Source of the DNA: an uncultured bacterium | GTDB lineage: Bacteria > Krumholzibacteriota > Krumholzibacteriia > Krumholzibacteriales > Krumholzibacteriaceae | Reading direction: 5' to 3' | DNA: 64,000 nucleotides | NCBI GenBank assembly: GCA_963846325.1 | Contig: CAWJVO010000009.1 | Span: forward strand, 47,205-111,204 | Shown here: in pieces, positions 2,127 through 41,565 of the stretch | Numbering within the stretch: the first letter of the stretch is position 1 | Layout of the letters: the number at the start of each line of letters is the position of its first letter | The notes under the pieces: generated by a model | What the model saw: only the letters and a program-made list of their open reading frames with translations | Database searches by the model: none | What the model was told of the DNA's origin: nothing | Translations under genes and position numbers: made by a program

Positions 2127-2501
2127 CTACCCGCCCGAATTCTCCGATTCCGCCGCGCCGTCACCGACGAGGATATAATCCACTTCCATCTCCCTGCCGC
2201 CGAGTATCTCGATGTCGCAGGAGCCGCATACCGGGCATATGCAGACGAACCCGGCGGGATTCGAATCGGCCGCGCACGCCGCGCAGCGTATCCGCAGAGG
2301 AACCCTCTCCACGCGGAGCGAAGCCCCTTCCGCCGCCGTTCCCTTCGCCATCACGTCGAACGCGAAGCGCAGGGCGTCCTCGCTGACGCCCGCCATTTCG
2401 CCGATCCTCAGATGGACGACCCGCACCGGAGCGCCCCCCTCGTCGCGCGCCGCCCGATCGACGATGGCGAGAAGATTCTTCATGAGGGACGCCTCATGCA
2501 C
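2127..2501 (-). CDS. hypA: Hydrogenase nickel-insertion protein HypA
   Basis: The zinc site is present as CAAC...CPVC. A GTG start at 2499-2501 gives the N-terminus (M)HEASLM, restoring the Ni-binding MHE motif. The alternative ATG at 2483 would delete that motif. Confidence 0.8.
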   Translation of the reverse strand: MHEASLMKNLLAIVDRAARDEGGAPVRVVHLRIGEMAGVSEDALRFAFDVMAKGTAAEGASLRVERVPLRIRCAACAADSNPAGFVCICPVCGSCDIEILGGREMEVDYILVGDGAAESENSGG

Positions 2502-3000
2502 CGGTATTCTTCCTCTCCGAGAGCCCGATCGAGACCGTTCGATGCGGCGCTCCCGTGATTTCTCCCGCGATCTCGTCGGCGAGGATCGGAATGACGCTCC
2601 GAACGGCATCCGTGCATCGCTCAGCGAGGGTGAGGGTATCTTCCGCCTGCACTCCGAAGATAACGACTTCTTCCGGCATATGAAACTGCAAACGGCGCCC
2701 GAGCGCGAGCGCCGTGACCATATCGATGTCGTGGAACGAGGCGAGACGCGGCGTGGTCCGTATGTCGTCGGGCTTCATTCTGAAGACGACGCCGGGCTCC
2801 TCGCCGTCGAGCATGATCGCGTCCACGATGAACGCGCGATCGTATCCGTTGAGCATCTCGATGAGATCGAGACCGGCGAGCTCGGCTTCGCGGACGTCCG
2901 CCGCCTCGCCGAGGCGCCCCATGAGCGCCCTGGCGACGTAGATTCCCGCGCCGTCGTCGCTGAGGATCGTATTGCCGAGCCCGAGTACGATTGTTTTCAC
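2494..3000 (-). CDS. Hydrogenase maturation endopeptidase (HycI/FrhD/HoxW-type)
   Basis: The 168-aa protein starts at a GTG at 3000 with (V)KTIVLGLGNTILSDDGAG, followed later by ...FHDIDM. This is the characteristic GxGNxxxxDDG protease family, and the gene lies directly downstream of the large subunit. Confidence 0.8.
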   Translation of the reverse strand: MKTIVLGLGNTILSDDGAGIYVARALMGRLGEAADVREAELAGLDLIEMLNGYDRAFIVDAIMLDGEEPGVVFRMKPDDIRTTPRLASFHDIDMVTALALGRRLQFHMPEEVVIFGVQAEDTLTLAERCTDAVRSVIPILADEIAGEITGAPHRTVSIGLSERKNTGA

Positions 3001-3029: not shown

Positions 3030-4490
3030 CTATCTCGAGACCGTCCGGACCGTCTCCCCGACCGCGTTCTTGATCTCGATCCTCAGGGGCATATGGCCGG
3101 GAAGGCTGTGCGTCGCGCAGCTGAAACACGGATCGTAGATGCGGAAGGCCATCTCGACCATATTGAGAAGCCCTTCCTTGACCTCGCCCCCCTTGCCGAT
3201 GAATTTCATCGCGGCCTTCTTGACCGCCATGGAAATCGGAGCGTTGTTGTTCGTCGTTCCGACGATGAGGTTCGCCTTCGTAACGATTCCGCGCGCGTCG
3301 GTCACGTAGTGATGCGTCAGGGTGCCGCGCGGCGCCTCGATGATTCCCACGCCTTCCGACGGCGTCGTCGACGGAATCACGCGGACGTTCGGATCGAGGA
3401 TCTCCTCGTCGTCGACGAGCTCGGCGAGCCGCTCGGCCGCGTAGAGAAGCTCTATCAATCGCGCCCAATGCATGGCCATAAGCTTGTGCACCGGCTTACC
3501 GCCGAAGGTGGCGAACATCTTCTCGTAGGCCGCATGCGCCTTCGGCGTCGCCATGCCGCTCGCCGCGTTGAAGCGCGCGAGCGGAGCGGCCTGGTAGAGC
3601 GACGTGCCCGTGCCTTCCTTGAATCCCTGCCATCCCAGCTTCTTGAGATACGGGAACTTCAGATAGGTGTACGGCTCGACGTGCTCCGCGACGTGGTCGA
3701 GATATTCCGCCTCGCGGTACCGGTCGATTTCGTTCCCGTCCGGATCGACGACCCGGACCGTCCCGTCGTAGAACGTCACGCGGTTCTTGTCGTCGACGAG
3801 CCCCATGTAATTCGTCACGAGCTCGTAGCCGTCCCCGAGGATGAGATCGAGGTACGCCTTGTTCTTGAGCACGACATCGTCGAAGAGCTTGAGACCGAAC
3901 TCCCCGAACCCCACGAGACCCGGTGCGAACTTCTTGATGCTGTCCCGGTCCTCGCGGGCGAGCGCCCGCGTCACGCCGCCGGGAAGGTTCCACACGGGAT
4001 GCGTCGAGCGGCCGCCGATCATCTGCTGGATGATCTGCGAAATCTCGCGCTGGCGGATGACCTCTTTTCCGATGTCGATCCCGACCTTGTTCACGAGCCC
4101 GAGAATGTTGCGCTCCGCGGGAGGCGCGTCGGGCCCCACGACGAAATCGGGAGCGGCGAGGGCGTAGAAATGCGCCGTGTGGCTGTGAATGAAGTGAGCC
4201 ATGTAGTACAGCTCACGGAGCTTCGCCGCCGCCGCCGGAATCTTCACTTTGTATACTGCATCTACGGCCTTACCCGAGGCCATGTGGTGCGCGGCCGGTC
4301 AAACACCGCAGATGCGCGTGACAACCCGCGGAACCTCCTCGATCGGAAGGCCCTCGACGAACTTCTCGAATCCCCGGAGCTCCGGGATCTGGAGGTACGC
4401 GTTTTCGACCGCGCCCTCGTCGTTCAAGAAGATCGTGATTTTTCCGTGCCCCTCCAACCGGGTGATCGGGTCGATCGCGATGCGCTTCAT
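3030..4490 (-). CDS. mvhA: Group-3c [NiFe] hydrogenase large subunit (MvhA-like) with an in-frame TGA at 4299-4301 (candidate selenocysteine)
   Basis: Track ORFs 4299..4838 (last 63 aa, MKRIAIDPITRLEGHG...RICGV) and 3030..4283 are in the same frame and are separated only by a TGA. Read-through gives RICGV-U-PAAHHMASGKAVD. The C-terminal DPCFSCATH motif is intact. GGAGGAGGA lies upstream of the ATG at 4488-4490. Confidence 0.8.
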
Positions 4491-5440
4491 GCTTTCCTCC
4501 TCCTCAGTATCGAAGAAGCGAGACTGAACCGATGGAAGGTCCTCAGCGGATCGACCACGGTATCCAGCATCGCGTTGATATCCTTCTCCTCTTTCGGCTC
4601 CATGACGGACGCGAGTGCGCCCAGCATCTTGATACCCTGGTCGGCGATGTCGTCGAGCGGGCCGTAGCAGCCGCGGCACGGCGTCCACGACTTGATGCAG
4701 CGCGATCCGCAGCCGGAGCGCGTCGCCGGACCGAGACAGATGAAACCCTGTTCGAGAAAACACGTATCCGCGTCGGGGAGCTTCTCGTGCGTCCGGTAGA
4801 TCTTCGTGATCGTCTTCTCGCCCTTCTTCCGCGGGCATTCGTCACAGAGGGCGCGATCCCCGGCGCCGATCACGGAGCCCTTTTTCGGCAGCATATCGTC
4901 CGCGACGAGTCCGAGCGCCGAGTAGATCTGGAGCGACGCGGGCGGGCATCCCGGAATCGTATAGTCGACGTCGACGACCTGATCGAGCGTTTTCACCGTG
5001 TTGTAGAGATGCGGCAGATCCAGCTCGTGCCCGTCCGCCTTCGAGCTCTCGAGGGGAAGCACGCCTTCCGCGTTCACCGTCGATTCGGATTCGAGGTAGA
5101 CGCGCCTCAGGACCTCTTCGCGCGTGTACATGTTCGCGAGCCCCGGAACGCCGCCGAGCTGCGCGCAGGCGCCGAGGGCCACCATGACCTTCGCTTTTCT
5201 GCGGAGGAGCTTCGCGATCTCTTCGTTCTCCGAATTGCGGACCCCGCCGCTGAAGAGCGCGACGTCGAGAAAGCCGTCCTTCATCGCGCGAACGTCGCTG
5301 TACTTGAAATCCATCGCGACGGGCCAGAGGTATATGTCGGCCATATCGGCGATCTCGAGGAGCTTCTCGTGCGTATCGAGAATCGCGACGTCGCATCCGC
5401 CGCACGCCGCGCCCCAGTAAATCCCTATCTTGAGCTTCAT
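4487..5440 (-). CDS. mvhG: [NiFe] hydrogenase small subunit (MvhG-like)
   Basis: The 317-aa protein starts MKLKIGIYWGAACGGCDVA, with later GCPP and multiple Cys clusters for Fe-S centres. It has ATGA overlaps with mvhD upstream and mvhA downstream. Confidence 0.85.
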   Translation of the reverse strand: MKLKIGIYWGAACGGCDVAILDTHEKLLEIADMADIYLWPVAMDFKYSDVRAMKDGFLDVALFSGGVRNSENEEIAKLLRRKAKVMVALGACAQLGGVPGLANMYTREEVLRRVYLESESTVNAEGVLPLESSKADGHELDLPHLYNTVKTLDQVVDVDYTIPGCPPASLQIYSALGLVADDMLPKKGSVIGAGDRALCDECPRKKGEKTITKIYRTHEKLPDADTCFLEQGFICLGPATRSGCGSRCIKSWTPCRGCYGPLDDIADQGIKMLGALASVMEPKEEKDINAMLDTVVDPLRTFHRFSLASSILRRRKA

Positions 5441-5919
5441 CTCGCCTCTCCGGTTGGTGCCTGATGTTCCTCGCCGTGATGCGCGACGTCGGTCTTCATG
5501 CTCTCGAAGAGCGATTCCTTGACCTTGAGGGGACCGAGCGCCCGGATTTCCTCCGTGAACTCGTCGACGACGTGCCCGAACCGCTCCCCTTCCGACGCCG
5601 AAACCCACTCGAGCCGCACGCGGCCGGCTTCGATCCCGTACTCGGGCAGTATTCTCTTGAGCAGGAGATAGCGCCGGAGCGCCTTGTAGTTGCCTTCCTG
5701 GTAATGGCAGTCTCCCGGGTGACACCCGCCGATGAGCACGCCGTCCGCGCCCTCGAAGAGCGCCTTTATCACGAACACGGGATCCACCCTGCCGCTGCAC
5801 ATGACGCGAATCGAGCGGATGTTCGGGCTGTACTTGACGCGCGCCGTTCCGGCCAGATCCGCGCCCGTGTACGTGCACCAATTACACAGGAAACCCACGA
5901 TTCTCGGTTCGAACGCCAT
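5437..5919 (-). CDS. mvhD: Methyl-viologen-reducing hydrogenase delta subunit (MvhD)
   Basis: The translation MAFEPRIVGFLCNWCTYTGADLAG...MCSGRVDP...GCHPGDCHY is the MvhD/FlpD fold carrying the [2Fe-2S] cysteines. Confidence 0.9.
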   Translation of the reverse strand: MAFEPRIVGFLCNWCTYTGADLAGTARVKYSPNIRSIRVMCSGRVDPVFVIKALFEGADGVLIGGCHPGDCHYQEGNYKALRRYLLLKRILPEYGIEAGRVRLEWVSASEGERFGHVVDEFTEEIRALGPLKVKESLFESMKTDVAHHGEEHQAPTGEAR

Positions 5920-5945: not shown

Positions 5946-7925
5946 TCACCGGGAGGACAGGATCCCCTCTATCTCGGCGAAGATCTGCTTGTTGCTGAAA
6001 TGCTTCGCCTTGATCGCGTTGCTCGGGCAGGCGGCGACGCACGTCCCGCATCCCTTGCAAAGCGCCTCGTTGATGACGGACACCTTCTTTTCCTCGTCGA
6101 ACCGGATCGCGAGATACGGGCAGAGGTTGTTGCAGATCCGGCATCCGGAACACTTCTCTTCGTCGATCTCCGCGGTCGCCGATTCGATCTCGATCTTCTC
6201 GCGCATGATCATCGAGAGCACGGCGCTCGAAGCCGCGGAAGCCTGGGCGACGGTGTCGGGAATGTCCTTCGGCGACTGGCACGCCCCGACGATGAATACG
6301 CCGTCCGTGGCGGTCGATACGGGGCCGAGCTTCGGATGCTTCTCGATGAGAAAGCCGTCCTTGCCGATGCTCACGCTGCACATCTTCGCGACCGCGGCCA
6401 GCCCCTTCGGCGCTTCGATCCCGGTGCAGAGAACGACCATGTCGACGGGAATTCTCCGGACGACTCCGAGGAGCGTGTCCTCGACGCGCACGATGAGCTT
6501 TCCCTCTTCGCCTTCATGGATCGGCATATCGGTAATCTCGCCGACCTTGCCGCGGATGAACCGCACGTCCTCGCCGAGAAGCCTGTCGTAGAACTCCTCG
6601 TACCCCTTCCCGAAGCAGCGCAGATCGATATAGAAATTGTAGACTTCCGCCTTCGTCTTTTCCTTGATGAGATGCGCGAACTTGAGGGCGTACATGCAGC
6701 AGACGCGCGAGCAGTATTCGTGGTAGTCCTTGTCGCGGCTTCCGATGCAATGAATGATCCCGATCGCCTTCGGCTCGGATCCGTCGGCGAGGACGATCTT
6801 CCCGTTCGTCGACCCCGCCGCGCAGTTCATCATCTCGAACTCGAGCGCGGTGACGACGTTCGGAAGAATCCCGTACCGGTATCGCTTCATGACGGACGGA
6901 TCGAACGTCTGGAGCCCGGCGGCGATGATGATGTTGCCGACTTCGAACTCGTGGATCCGGTCCTCCATATCGAACTTGATCGCGTGCCGCTCGCACACCT
7001 TTTCGCACGTCCGGCATTTGCCCTTCTGAAAATACGTGCAGGAGTCCCGATCGATGACGGGCACCGCGGGGACGGCCTGCATGAACGGCATGTAGATCGA
7101 CGTCGTCGGTCCGAGCGAGAGCTTCTCGTGCGCGTTGCCTTTGCGCGGAACGCGCGTGCCAGGGCATTTCTCCCAGCACATCCCGCACCCGTTGCAGAGC
7201 TCCCGATCGACGTATCGCGCTTTCTCGCGGATCTTCACCTTGAAATTGCCGACGAAGCCGCTCACTTCGGCGAGCTCGGAATACGAGAGCAGGGTGATGT
7301 TCTTGTGCTGGCCGACCTGCACCATGCGGGGCGTGAGGATGCACGCGGCGCAGTCGAGCGTCGGAAACGTCTTGTCGAACTTGGCCATATGCCCGCCGAT
7401 GGACGGATCGCGCTCGACGAGAACGACCTCTTTTCCCGCCTCCGCGAGGTCGAGCGCCGCCTGGATGCCCGCGATGCCGCCGCCGATGACGAGCGTGCGC
7501 GGATTGATGGGGACGACCCGCTTCTCGAGCGGCTCGAGCCATGTCGATCGCGCCACCGCCGCCGCGATGAGCGCTTTCGCCTTTTCGGTCGACGAGGCCT
7601 CGTCGAGATGCACCCACGAGCACTGCTCCCGGATGTTCGCCATCGCGAAGAGATACGCGTTGACGCCCGAGCGCTCGCACACCTTCCGGAACGTATTCTC
7701 GTGCATGAGGGGCGAGCACGACGCGACCACGACCCGATCGACGGCCCCCTCTTTGATGTCTTTCTCGATCATCGCCTGGCCGGGATCCGAGCACATAAAC
7801 TTGTAGTCCCGCACGAGCGAAACGTTCTCCAGCTCCTTCGCGTACTTCACGACCTCGTCGATGTTGACCTTGCCGGCGATGTTCGTGCCGCAATGACAGA
7901 CGTACACTCCGATGCGTTCAGCCAT
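5946..7925 (-). CDS. hdrA: Heterodisulfide reductase subunit A (FAD, multiple 4Fe-4S)
   Basis: The 659-aa protein has VIGGGIAGIQAALDLAEAG (FAD dinucleotide fold), CxxCxxCxxxCP ferredoxin motifs and DCAACIL. All cysteines are Cys codons and there is no internal stop. Confidence 0.95.
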   Translation of the reverse strand: MAERIGVYVCHCGTNIAGKVNIDEVVKYAKELENVSLVRDYKFMCSDPGQAMIEKDIKEGAVDRVVVASCSPLMHENTFRKVCERSGVNAYLFAMANIREQCSWVHLDEASSTEKAKALIAAAVARSTWLEPLEKRVVPINPRTLVIGGGIAGIQAALDLAEAGKEVVLVERDPSIGGHMAKFDKTFPTLDCAACILTPRMVQVGQHKNITLLSYSELAEVSGFVGNFKVKIREKARYVDRELCNGCGMCWEKCPGTRVPRKGNAHEKLSLGPTTSIYMPFMQAVPAVPVIDRDSCTYFQKGKCRTCEKVCERHAIKFDMEDRIHEFEVGNIIIAAGLQTFDPSVMKRYRYGILPNVVTALEFEMMNCAAGSTNGKIVLADGSEPKAIGIIHCIGSRDKDYHEYCSRVCCMYALKFAHLIKEKTKAEVYNFYIDLRCFGKGYEEFYDRLLGEDVRFIRGKVGEITDMPIHEGEEGKLIVRVEDTLLGVVRRIPVDMVVLCTGIEAPKGLAAVAKMCSVSIGKDGFLIEKHPKLGPVSTATDGVFIVGACQSPKDIPDTVAQASAASSAVLSMIMREKIEIESATAEIDEEKCSGCRICNNLCPYLAIRFDEEKKVSVINEALCKGCGTCVAACPSNAIKAKHFSNKQIFAEIEGILSSR

Positions 7926-8802
7926 TGTTCGCTCCCTCGAATATCTTCTTGATCGGCTTGGTGAGCTTCACCGCGAGCCGGCCGAGCCCGAGGTCGCGGA
8001 GCGGCAGACCGAGGCTCACGCCGATCAGCTGGGTGAAATAGAGCACGGGGATATCGAATTTCGTCTTGAAGCGGGCGTTGATCTTGCCCTGGTACACGTC
8101 GAGATTCATCTGGCAGAGCGGACATATCGTCACGATGCAGTGCGCGCCGTTCTGCTGCGCGTCGAGGAGCAGGTTCCTGCAGAGCCGCATGGCCAGATCC
8201 TCCTGGGTCCCCATGAGCGACGCGCCGCAGCACGAGGTCTTCATCCGGTAATCGACGCACTCCGCCCCGAGCGCCTCAATCAGCCTGTTCATCGTCGTCG
8301 GCTCGTCGGGATCGTCGAATCCCGAATCGGGCCGGACGATCTGGCATCCGTAATAGGGCGCGACCTTGAGCCCCGCGAGTTTCTTCTTCGCGAGCGACGC
8401 GACTTTCTCGTAGCCGACGTCGTTGCAGACGACGTCGAGCAGATGCCGAACACGGAGGTTTCCGCTGTAGCTGAGGCCGCCCGCCTCGAGCGCCAAACCG
8501 ATCTTCTTTCGAAGCTCGGGATAATCGGCGAAATAATGGTTCGTCTTGTTGAGCACGGTGTAGCACGCGCTGCACGGCGTCACGACGTCGCGGTGATGCT
8601 TCTCGGCGATGGCGAGGTTACGGGCCGAAATCGCGAAGCTCATGAGCTCCTTGACCGACATGTACGCGGTCGCGCCGCAGCAATTCCAGTCCTCGAGCTC
8701 CTCGAGCTCGATCCCCAGCGCGGGCGCGATGGCGGCGATCGAATCGCGATAAATATTGGCGGTCGCGTTGACGGAACACCCAGGATAGTATGTGTATTTC
8801 AT
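7918..8802 (-). CDS. hdrB: Heterodisulfide reductase subunit B (two CCG domains)
   Basis: The protein starts MKYTYYPGCS and has two CCG motifs (NCCGATAYM; SCCGASLM) plus CPLCQ. It overlaps the hdrA start by 8 nt. Confidence 0.95.
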   Translation of the reverse strand: MKYTYYPGCSVNATANIYRDSIAAIAPALGIELEELEDWNCCGATAYMSVKELMSFAISARNLAIAEKHHRDVVTPCSACYTVLNKTNHYFADYPELRKKIGLALEAGGLSYSGNLRVRHLLDVVCNDVGYEKVASLAKKKLAGLKVAPYYGCQIVRPDSGFDDPDEPTTMNRLIEALGAECVDYRMKTSCCGASLMGTQEDLAMRLCRNLLLDAQQNGAHCIVTICPLCQMNLDVYQGKINARFKTKFDIPVLYFTQLIGVSLGLPLRDLGLGRLAVKLTKPIKKIFEGANNG

Positions 8803-9378
8803 CTATATCTCCCCGAGCTCGTCCACTTTCTTGAGTATCTTCTTGAGTTGAGCCATGTTTTTCATTCTATGCGGGAGAAGCGGCAGGCGTCTGTTCACGA
8901 GCAGCTTCCATCCCTGGGGCACGAACTTCAGCGCGTGAAAGAGATCGGCTTCGAGAATGTAACGGGCCATCAGCTCCGTCTCGTGGTTGCGCCCGTATGT
9001 GTTGACCATGCGCGCGAAGTTCTTGGAGAGAACGACCGCCTTCTTGCCTTTCGTCTTCCCCTCCTTGACGGCGAGCCTCTTCAGCGCGTACATGACGTCG
9101 GTGATCTTGATGTCCTTCGGACACCGGACCGCGCAGGTGTAGCAGGAAGAGCAGAACCAGATCGTGTTCGAGGAAAGCACCTCGTCCCTGAATCCCGCTC
9201 TGATGAGAGAGAACATCTTGCGCGGGCCGTGATCCATCACGTAGCTCAGAGGACATGAACTGCTGCACGTTCCGCACTGGATGCACTTCTTGATCTCCCG
9301 GCCTCCGGGCAACGCGTAGATCTCGGAGAGGAAATCGTGATCGAGCTTGTATTCGGCGATAACGTCCCTGTCGAGCAT
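8803..9378 (-). CDS. hdrC: Heterodisulfide reductase subunit C (2x4Fe-4S)
   Basis: It has the motifs CIQCGTCSSSCP and CSSCYTCAVRCP. Its TAG stop abuts the hdrB ATG. Confidence 0.9.
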   Translation of the reverse strand: MLDRDVIAEYKLDHDFLSEIYALPGGREIKKCIQCGTCSSSCPLSYVMDHGPRKMFSLIRAGFRDEVLSSNTIWFCSSCYTCAVRCPKDIKITDVMYALKRLAVKEGKTKGKKAVVLSKNFARMVNTYGRNHETELMARYILEADLFHALKFVPQGWKLLVNRRLPLLPHRMKNMAQLKKILKKVDELGEI

Positions 9379-28496: not shown

Positions 28497-29273
28497 CTAC
28501 TTTTTGCCGCAGGTCTTGGCCTTCGGGCAGGTGCCCTCTTCGGCCGCCGCACAGCCCGCTTCCTTCTTGGCTCCCGCATCCGCTTTCTTCATCTTCCCGT
28601 CCTTCTCGCCGCAGCCTTTCGCCCCGGCCGGCGCCGGACCCATATACTTCTTCGGATCCTTGTTGAACTTCTCGAGGCAGTCGTTGCAGCAGAAATACCG
28701 CGTCTTGCCTTCGTACACAACCTTGGCCGGCGCGTCCTTGCGCAGGAACACCTTTCCGGTCACGGGGCACTCGGCGTAGAGATACGCGTCGGGATTCTTC
28801 TCGAACGCGATCTTGTTCGCCTCGCTCACGAAAAAGAAAGGCCGTCCCTCGAATACGGCCGTGTGCTTCATTTCCTTCTGGGGCTTCACTTCGTTCGAAA
28901 CCACGTCGTAGTTGATCGCGTACTCCGCCGGATTGGCGAAATACTTTTCCTTGCAGACGTTCGCGCAAAAATGCAGCTGGCGTCCCTCATGAACGGCCTC
29001 GATCGAGCCCGCCTTCTTGACCGTCATGCCGCAGACCGGATCCATATCCATCCCCGCCGACATAGCAGCGGGATCCATGAGAAAATACGCTTTGCATCCC
29101 GCGTCGCAGAAGTAGTATGTCGTTCCCTCGTGCTCGGCCATGAGCGCCTCGGCCTTCGGAACCAGATAGCCGCACACGGTGCAGGGAACCATATCCTTCT
29201 TCTCCGCCGAAATTGCAGCCCCAGCGGCGACAAGCATCGCGGCGAGAACCATGAGCATGAAAAATCTCTTCAC
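28497..29273 (-). CDS. Secreted protein with four YHS/TRASH-like metal-binding modules and a Cys/Lys-rich tail
   Basis: A GTG start lies 6 nt after AAGGAGG, and a signal peptide is present. Four repeats follow of C.(V/M)(C/T)G..V.......(H/Y)EG....FC...C...F. The tail is GCGEKDGKMKK...GCAAAEEGTCPKAKTCGKK. Confidence 0.75.
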   Translation of the reverse strand: MKRFFMLMVLAAMLVAAGAAISAEKKDMVPCTVCGYLVPKAEALMAEHEGTTYYFCDAGCKAYFLMDPAAMSAGMDMDPVCGMTVKKAGSIEAVHEGRQLHFCANVCKEKYFANPAEYAINYDVVSNEVKPQKEMKHTAVFEGRPFFFVSEANKIAFEKNPDAYLYAECPVTGKVFLRKDAPAKVVYEGKTRYFCCNDCLEKFNKDPKKYMGPAPAGAKGCGEKDGKMKKADAGAKKEAGCAAAEEGTCPKAKTCGKK

Positions 29274-40970: not shown

Positions 40971-41339
40971 TCAGAACGCAAACGGTTTTATATGAGCGAG
41001 CCCCCATAGAAGGCCGGAAATCAGAAGCAATTTTACGACGTATATCCGCCAGTGCTTCAGAGTGGCCGGCTCGCTGTTCGACGTGAGCCCATGTACGCGC
41101 GTGATGTCGAGATAACGGACCAGGATGAGCCCCCCTACAATCGCCCAGTATACGATATCGAAAACGGAAAAAGCCGGTTTCTTGAGAATGAGAATTGCAA
41201 GCATGAACAGCGCAAGGTTGCCGAACAAAAGCCAAAACATGCGTGCGACGAGCCCGATACAACCTATCGGCGCGGGCTCCGCAACATTGCGCTTGGATTC
41301 CAGCTGACTGGACATGACCGCCTCCCAAACGACGCCCAT
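40971..41339 (-). CDS. Small hypothetical membrane protein
   Basis: The 122-aa protein has four hydrophobic segments. There is no other support for it. Confidence 0.4.
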   Translation of the reverse strand: MGVVWEAVMSSQLESKRNVAEPAPIGCIGLVARMFWLLFGNLALFMLAILILKKPAFSVFDIVYWAIVGGLILVRYLDITRVHGLTSNSEPATLKHWRIYVVKLLLISGLLWGLAHIKPFAF

Positions 41340-41565
41340 TACCGGGCGCGGCCATGAAATACAATAACGTAATGCATCTCATAGCCTTGTTTGGATGGCG
41401 GCCCGACCACCCGATCGTCCTGCGGCGGCCCGAATTCGATCCGCCGCACCCTTCTGAGTCGGGGCATAAAACACCTATCGAATGAACTATAGCATGAATA
41501 CCTTTGTGCTCAAACCTATTTCTCCTGGTGGAGCCGCACACTATCCCGGCAGGATAATAAAAATC

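Follow-up and report, generated by a model that had tools for sequence, protein, structure and literature searches.

A candidate selenocysteine codon at the bridging-cysteine position of an Hdr-linked (Group 3c-type) hydrogenase large subunit from Krumholzibacteriota

The classical [NiFeSe] hydrogenases, among them those of Desulfomicrobium baculatum and D. vulgaris (HysAB) and the VhuA/VhuU and FruA enzymes of Methanococcus, have selenocysteine (Sec) at the first position of the large subunit's C-terminal DPUxxCxxH motif, where it is a terminal ligand to nickel. To our knowledge, all biochemistry and structures of [NiFeSe] hydrogenases concern enzymes with selenium at this terminal position, and the sole experiment with selenium at the bridging position considered here was made on an E. 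coli enzyme variant obtained by engineering. A 2026 review of selenoproteomes lists hydrogenase large subunits with a C-terminal UxxC only, and describes [NiFeSe] hydrogenases as confined to sulfate reducers and methanogens (PMC13188914). Here we analyse a 64,000-nucleotide stretch of contig CAWJVO010000009.1 from an uncultured bacterium of the Krumholzibacteriota (hereafter the window), in which mvhA, encoding the large subunit of an Hdr-linked hydrogenase, contains an in-frame TGA at codon 64. Like the classical enzymes, MvhA is a [NiFe] large subunit with one UGA-encoded residue, here proposed to be a Sec ligand to nickel; unlike them, it has its candidate Sec codon in the N-terminal motif, at a bridging position. 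UGA64 is almost certainly recoded to give a full-length large subunit, and the residue inserted there is very probably selenocysteine.

The original prediction treated this UGA as a candidate Sec codon at the bridging cysteine, with a downstream hairpin as a possible signal, and knew of no described example. The last point is contradicted by the literature. Among Group 4 hydrogenases, Takano et al. (Front Microbiol 2026; PMC13582414) reported 47 whose Sec lies in the N-terminal motif; in 27 the form is CxxU. As in mvhA, the Sec codon of these CxxU enzymes stands at the second N-terminal cysteine, a predicted Ni-Fe bridge, and is followed directly by a selenocysteine insertion sequence (SECIS) hairpin with G at loop position 1 or 2. 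The two cases also share discovery by UGA read-through in metagenome-assembled genomes (MAGs), mis-annotation as truncated genes, evidence that is in silico only, and close Cys-type genes that sometimes retain a SECIS-like hairpin (PMC13582414). The Group 4 enzymes, however, are membrane-bound and energy-converting and come from nine phyla without Krumholzibacteriota (PMC13582414), whereas the window enzyme is soluble, Mvh-type (Group 3c), and linked to HdrABC. Baltazar et al. [quoted passage not shown] The ligand position is the same as in MvhA, and one sequence is likewise from Group 3, but according to that citation CxxU was presented as an exception, whereas here it marks a family that is large (at least 119 distinct sequences) and spans at least two phyla. 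Evans et al. 2021 (PNAS; PMC8020662) mention purported natural examples of bridging Sec and constructed the C79U variant of E. coli Hyd-1, which had 13% of native activity (the highest of four Cys-to-Sec variants), a lowered apparent KM for H2, and almost no activity at 10% O2. Selenium is thus tolerated at the position equivalent to U64 of MvhA, although Hyd-1 C79U is an artificial variant, produced by means of a UAG/EF-Tu system, of an O2-tolerant enzyme of Group 1d (PMC8020662).

In subunits and gene neighbourhood the window locus matches the methanogen complexes MvhADG-HdrABC and VhuAUDG-HdrABC (PDB 5ODC and 9SFI), with large-subunit matches at E ~1e-110. Sec sites in HdrA and MvhD are common to the methanogen complexes and to relatives of the window operon. 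The differences are that the window host is bacterial and that the Sec of methanogen Vhu is C-terminal, in VhuU. A literature search combining Krumholzibacteriota with selenocysteine or seleno- terms returned nothing relevant. Three points appear to be unreported so far: how large the CxxU family of Group 3c is, that it occurs in Mvh-Hdr operons of Krumholzibacteriota and Dehalococcoidales, and that it is uniformly mis-annotated as pieces of 63 and 417-418 residues.

mvhA occupies positions 3030-4490 on the minus strand (486 codons plus TAG). The open reading frame (ORF) begins with ATG at 4488-4490, runs for 63 codons to the TGA at 4299-4301 (codon 64, the proposed Sec codon), and continues in frame for a further 422 codons to TAG at 3030-3032. 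A Shine-Dalgarno-like GGAGGAGGA (4495-4503, minus strand) lies 4 nt ahead of the ATG, which overlaps the stop codon of mvhG as ATGA. The read-through product, ...RICGV[UGA]PAAHHMASGKAVDAVY, matches Pfam PF00374 (NiFeSe_Hases) and contains both Ni-binding motifs of a hydrogenase large subunit. In the N-terminal motif R59-I-C61-G-V-U64-P-A-A-H68 (4287-4316, minus strand), the UGA aligns to the second Cys of RxCGxC. The C-terminal motif D453-P-C455-F-S-C458-A-T-H461 (3108-3134, minus strand) is all-Cys, including its first position (DPCFSCATH), where the classical [NiFeSe] enzymes have Sec. A 25-residue extension follows His461 (3033-3107, minus strand); it is presumably removed by a maturation protease, and a HycI-family protease gene lies directly downstream. 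The mvhA TGA is the only in-frame TGA in the window flanked on both sides by coding-like composition. On re-reading, the TGA site, its frame, the two motifs, the ribosome-binding site with its ATG, and the hairpin coordinates of the original prediction all proved correct.

The best NCBIfam model for MvhA is VhuA (418.7 bits, below the equivalog cut-off of 800). Its closest PDB relatives, at E ~1e-110, are 7t2r_D (a bifurcating NiFe hydrogenase), 9sfi_g (M. maripaludis VhuA), and 5odc_F (MvhA), where the residue opposite UGA64 is the second Cys of RICGICP. An alignment with E. coli Hyd-1 (residues 2-125 of the query, 17-140 of the chain) places Cys61 at Cys76 and UGA64 at Cys79, one of the two Ni-Fe bridging ligands in established [NiFe] structures (PMC8020662). 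On the basis of its closest relatives and its gene cluster, MvhA is classed as a Group 3c-type (Mvh-type, Hdr-linked) large subunit. An exact-sequence look-up of the window's 417-residue piece returned no record, and a search of representatives with the 63-residue piece returned mostly contig-end fragments.

Comparison with orthologues, which the original prediction had proposed as a check, revealed that codon 64 alternates between TGA and TGC/TGT. A scan at one genome per species gave 40 loci, mostly Krumholzibacteriota MAGs, with TGA at codon 64 in about 20 and TGC or TGT in the others. The full-length orthologues comprise 18 with TGA, all from Krumholzibacteriota, and 13 with TGC/TGT; they are otherwise intact at 486-489 codons (486-487 in the TGA genes). 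Neighbour-joining groups the TGA genes into a single clade within Krumholzibacteriota, with a Cys-type Krumholzibacteriota clade as its sister. A stop aligned to Cys64 was found in 145 loci. As in the Sec/Cys pairs by which selenoproteins are recognised, an in-frame TGA replaces a conserved Cys and has TGA homologues in other organisms. One gene nested in the TGA clade (L016; DAOVFR010000019.1, Krumholzibacteriota CSMAG_1114, 2741-2800) has TGC at codon 64 with the hairpin intact; it resembles a recent reversion from Sec to Cys, its SECIS left behind as a fossil. Another TGA-type mvhA (L034; JBAZPL010000089.1) has a second interruption at about codon 169, probably a frameshift or assembly error.

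Nei-Gojobori counts of synonymous (pS) and nonsynonymous (pN) differences within the 18 TGA genes place the stop inside a translated frame. Codons 1-63 have a pS of 0.47 and a pN of 0.054 (pN/pS 0.12), and codons 81 to the end have a pS of 0.57 and a pN of 0.12 (pN/pS 0.21). Codons 65-69, between the TGA and Met70, have a pS of 0.33 with a pN and pN/pS of 0, and codons 70-76, which carry the hairpin, have a pS of 0.055, again with a pN and pN/pS of 0. Since codons 1-63 have a pN/pS of 0.12 and codons 65-69 change only synonymously, translation would pass the TGA in frame. Judging by these counts, both pieces, together with the few codons that separate the TGA from the supposed second start, are evolving as one translated frame under purifying selection.

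The putative SECIS is the hairpin AUGGCCU/CGGGUA/AGGCCGU (4264-4283, minus strand; conserved core 4265-4282), which lies within coding sequence 16-35 nt 3' of the UGA. It has 7 bp, including one U-G pair, and a predicted energy of -10.0 kcal/mol. The apical loop, CGGGUA (4271-4276, minus strand), has G in position 2 and begins at a distance of 22 nt from the UGA. The consensus model for bacterial SECIS elements specifies a loop of 3-9 nt on 4-16 bp of upper stem, a G among the first two loop nucleotides (with G or U as its usual successor), a UGA-to-loop spacing of 16-37 nt, and a minimum free energy of at most -7.5 kcal/mol (PMC13188914, Fig. 2A). The mvhA hairpin satisfies this model in its 6-nt loop, its 7-bp stem, its G at loop position 2, its energy, and its spacing, which the original prediction had also placed within the SECIS range. 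Within the window, the 17-nt core of the hairpin is found a single time, where 0.01 occurrences would be expected.

No part of the gene is under stronger synonymous constraint than the hairpin, and this holds in the TGA-bearing genes only. Synonymous variation across the TGA genes is 0.39 overall. When it is taken over 12 codons at a time, the eleven lowest values (0.09-0.15) belong to the windows starting at codons 63-73; the same windows in the Cys-type genes vary at 0.57-0.64. Codons 69-75 (CAC AUG GCC UCG GGU AAG GCC) are identical in all 18 TGA genes, while two to six codons are used per variable position in the Cys-type genes. Over codons 70-76, the pS of 0.055 in the TGA genes (against 0.57 in the rest of the gene) compares with 0.76 in the Cys-type genes. 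Synonymous change therefore falls about ten-fold exactly over the hairpin. Together with the alternation at codon 64, this constraint, confined to TGA genes, supports the predicted reading of UGA64 as Sec via the hairpin.

The hairpin itself is retained with the TGA. At the fixed register, 95 of 100 distinct Sec-type sequences form a hairpin of -7.5 kcal/mol or below, compared with 2 of 18 Cys-type genes (Fisher p = 1.2e-13), and one of these two is the putative revertant L016. Among 63 diverse sequences, the inner six pairs are 95-100% paired. The outer A-U pair is present in only about half, so the seven pairs predicted earlier are correct for the window but only six are conserved across the family. 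Variation among these sequences consists of U-G to U-A changes plus one G-C to A-U double change. The loop CGGGUA is unchanged in all 18 Krumholzibacteriota-type genes. At loop codon 73 (4272-4274), genes of the Krumholzibacteriota type have GGU (Gly) and those of the Chloroflexota type UGU or UGC (Cys), and codon 72 is UCG (Ser) in Sec-type genes and mostly Ala in Cys-type genes. By these codon choices, the RNA element appears to dictate amino acids beside the active-site helix. The low-G+C outlier L157 has another hairpin, UUGGC-AGGU-GCCAA, at nearly the same distance. In two TGA-type sequences, L118 and L053, the usual register holds no convincing hairpin (-1.1 and -0.4 kcal/mol, respectively); another kind of SECIS may serve them, or the sequences may be erroneous or pseudogenes. 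A possible lower-stem extension pairing codon 67 with codons 77/78 displayed no covariation and was rejected.

The family extends well beyond the genomes compared above. A metagenome collection was scanned for a DNA pattern encoding CG-x-[TGA]-P-x-A-H-H-x-A; this set is selected for TGA and so gives no count of gains and losses. At least 120 further contigs, with at least 111 distinct downstream sequences, have the same TGA and the same hairpin register. The hydrogenases among the matches listed are 53-99% identical to the window protein and lie in the same operon type. Wherever the C-terminal motif was found in a full-length TGA-type relative among the same matches (89 cases), both of its positions are Cys. 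Neither UxxC nor UxxU forms of the N-terminal motif were seen in this analysis. Among the matches listed, the largest branch outside Krumholzibacteriota, with the sequence PGAHH[ML]ASCKAT and the loop CGUGUA or CGUGCA, belongs to Chloroflexota/Dehalococcoidales, as assigned from the neighbouring MvhG, and includes the 1.73-Mb genome CP070645.1.

These Dehalococcoidales relatives, which share the MvhA UGA and hairpin with the window, bear on the identity of the inserted residue. In 22-24 Dehalococcoidales contigs among the matches listed, the operon also has TGA at HdrA Cys195 (TFPTLDCSAU) and MvhD Cys66 (GUHPGECHY). HdrA and MvhD/VhuD are listed selenoprotein families (PMC13188914). The Sec of M. 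maripaludis HdrA is Sec197 (PMC13518236), within two residues of the Cys195 TGA when residue numbers are compared. Hairpins with G-rich loops follow the HdrA and MvhD TGAs, 18-23 nt 3' of the UGA. With UGA at known Sec sites of HdrA and MvhD, each followed by such a hairpin, the Dehalococcoidales relatives would decode UGA as Sec. In two loci (L140, 4464-9274; L167, 7628-12456, CP070645.1), hdrA (DCSAU), mvhD (GUHPGECHY), and mvhA (CGVU) are consecutive, each with a recoded UGA, and all three are split by gene callers. The recoding signature of mvhA consists of TGA/Cys alternation, selection on both sides of the stop, and SECIS-specific synonymous constraint, and it co-occurs with known selenoprotein genes in relatives.

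Several observations weigh against reading UGA64 as a Sec codon. The evidence for recoding is in silico throughout. Neither the 64-kb window nor 1.23 Mb of sequence from related loci (167 loci) yielded selA, selB, selD, or tRNA-Sec, and MvhA is the sole candidate selenoprotein seen in the Krumholzibacteriota clade, in which HdrA and MvhD are Cys-type. The fold energy of a 62-nt stretch is no better than that of shuffled sequences (z = +0.70). A second shuffle test, of the hairpin and its surroundings, gave z = -0.42, and thermodynamic significance was dropped as evidence. Positions 4180-4340 had no Rfam hit even at E values as high as 10. The hairpin is also nearly invariant, leaving almost no compensatory covariation beyond the single G-C to A-U change. 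Finally, an 11-bp stem GCAUCUGCGGU/GCCGUAGAUGC (~4312-4322 with ~4258-4268, minus strand) encloses the UGA, competes with the hairpin, and is strongly preferred over it in naked RNA, with a pairing probability of ~1. We know of no Rfam family that fits bacterial SECIS elements. Because the fold energy is ordinary for G+C-rich sequence and Rfam gives no match, the case for the hairpin rests on its conservation and not on thermodynamics. The 11-bp stem is perfect in the closest relatives only; four of its internal pairs are broken in 33-46% of the family without compensation, and it was rejected as a conserved element. Its 5' arm consists of the four codons directly before the UGA, which are inside the ribosome during decoding. 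The stem could modulate access to the UGA in this lineage.

Three other explanations of the TGA were weighed. The gene might be truly interrupted, either as a pseudogene or as a split gene yielding a 63-residue peptide and a 417-residue protein that starts at ATG 4283; VhuA/VhuU of Methanococcus voltae is a precedent for a split large subunit. The gene callers of every public source do give 63 plus 417-418 residues, and a Met codon lies five codons 3' of the TGA. This ATG (4281-4283, Met70) forms the first three nucleotides of the hairpin, and, as originally predicted, it lies within that structure and not behind a ribosome-binding site: no purine-rich tract precedes it, and hence it lacks a Shine-Dalgarno sequence. 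Many family members, Dehalococcoidales CP070645.1 included, have Leu (CTG), Val, or Ile at residue 70, so the "second start" is incidental and in those members no start codon exists. The TGA is kept in more than 100 distinct sequences without other disruptions, codons 65-69 evolve as coding sequence, and a split would delete the essential bridging ligand together with the conserved PxAHH. A search for refuting signs likewise found no independent disruptions and no indication of two separate polypeptides. Given this conservation, the selection on codons 65-69, the missing start codon and Shine-Dalgarno sequence, and the loss of an essential ligand, we reject a pseudogene or split gene as very unlikely. 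Lower still is the probability that the TGA is a sequencing or assembly error or a genome-wide sense codon (code 4 or 25), which we regard as negligible. Nothing specific favours it beyond the single base that separates TGA from TGC/TGT, and independent assemblies, which draw on many samples and technologies, repeatedly show the same TGA. Of the 29 family-supported genes in the window, 17 end in TGA, which is thus the most frequent ordinary stop there; reassignment is rejected on this ground, and no other in-frame TGA in the window has a coding signal on both sides.

The remaining alternative accepts recoding of UGA64 by the same hairpin and SelB, but with cysteine as the inserted residue, supplied by a tRNA-ReC-type tRNA or a Cys-charged tRNASec, so that the enzyme would be an ordinary all-Cys [NiFe] hydrogenase. 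The evidence gathered here shows recoding and not residue identity, and tRNA-ReC-like tRNAs, which can decode UGA as Cys with a SECIS, are present in ~17% of Sec-type genomes (Takano et al. 2026, PMC13582414). Such tRNAs are rare (~2%), however, in single-Sec CxxU/UxxC genomes (PMC13582414), and the sister-lineage operon has UGA at the classical Sec sites of HdrA and MvhD. Cysteine insertion by a costly UGA and SECIS is also hard to square with the easy TGA-to-TGC reversion in L016. We therefore consider cysteine insertion improbable and prefer selenocysteine at UGA64.

From these comparisons we infer that the inserted residue would be Sec, that it would bridge the two metals, and that MvhA would have the physiological role outlined here. 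In the proposed mechanism, mvhA would be one gene for the 486-residue large subunit of an Hdr-linked (Group 3c-type) hydrogenase, with UGA64 read as Sec. The hairpin 16-35 nt 3' of the UGA, with its G-rich loop 22 nt after it, would serve as a bacterial SECIS and is predicted to bring SelB-GTP-Sec-tRNASec to the ribosome with the UGA in the A site. At that moment, the upstream arm of the competing long stem would be inside the ribosome, and for this reason only the hairpin could form during decoding. HypA-F would then supply the NiFe(CN)2CO centre to the full-length protein, and the adjacent HycI-type protease would cut off the 25-residue C-terminal tail. Sec64, in place of the Ni-Fe bridging thiolate, would give a [NiFeSe] site with a bridging selenolate and not the classical terminal selenolate. 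Together with MvhG, MvhD, and HdrABC, the enzyme would form an H2-oxidising, electron-bifurcating complex.

We consider it likely that bridging-selenolate hydrogenases are not rare exceptions but a large natural class within the Hdr-linked Group 3c enzymes, selected in at least Krumholzibacteriota, Dehalococcoidales, and several further lineages and hidden by gene-caller splits, and that Krumholzibacteriota use Sec, with MvhA as a principal and possibly the main selenoprotein. Such a class would widen the range of [NiFeSe] hydrogenases beyond sulfate reducers and methanogens. An abundant natural family with bridging selenium would also offer a route to the role of selenium at each ligand position, in terms of H2 affinity, catalytic bias, and O2 sensitivity. 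As the gene is called as a 63-residue fragment and a 417-418-residue "hydrogenase" in every public source, surveys may score mvhA as truncated or miss its selenium dependence, and metabolic reconstructions of Krumholzibacteriota and Dehalococcoidia may be affected by the mis-annotation.

mvhA (Pfam NiFeSe_Hases) belongs to a cluster in the order hdrC-hdrB-hdrA-mvhD-mvhG-mvhA-hycI-hypA-hypB-hypC-hypD, with syntenic gene calls in a related locus (L041). The cluster is a complete Hdr-linked (Group 3c-type) hydrogenase set plus maturation genes, all on the minus strand. Upstream of mvhA lie mvhG, encoding the hydrogenase small subunit (4487-5440; Pfam Oxidored_q6), and, identified by family matches, the Cys-type mvhD of the FlpD family (5437-5919), the Cys-type hdrA (5946-7925; Cys195), hdrB (7918-8802), and hdrC (8803-9378). 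Downstream, also assigned by family matches, are the hycI-like protease gene (2494-3000), hypA (~2127-2498), hypB (1443-2105), hypC (~1207-1443), and hypD (95-1210). A single weak SelD-like match was obtained in a related locus (L037) and is probably HypE.

The remainder of the window consists of housekeeping genes. No other selenoprotein genes were found in the window or in the Krumholzibacteriota flanks. A sub-threshold match to NCBIfam NF041384, 'YHS domain-containing (seleno)protein', lies at 28497-29273 on the minus strand (36 bits against a cut-off of 70), with no in-frame TGA seen. An Rfam nhaA-I RNA (RF03057) was identified at 41393-41451 on the minus strand, its 50.7 bits exceeding the gathering score. 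This RNA adjoins tRNA-Glu, and a short way downstream of the RNA is a 122-residue ORF without a family match (40971-41339, minus strand).

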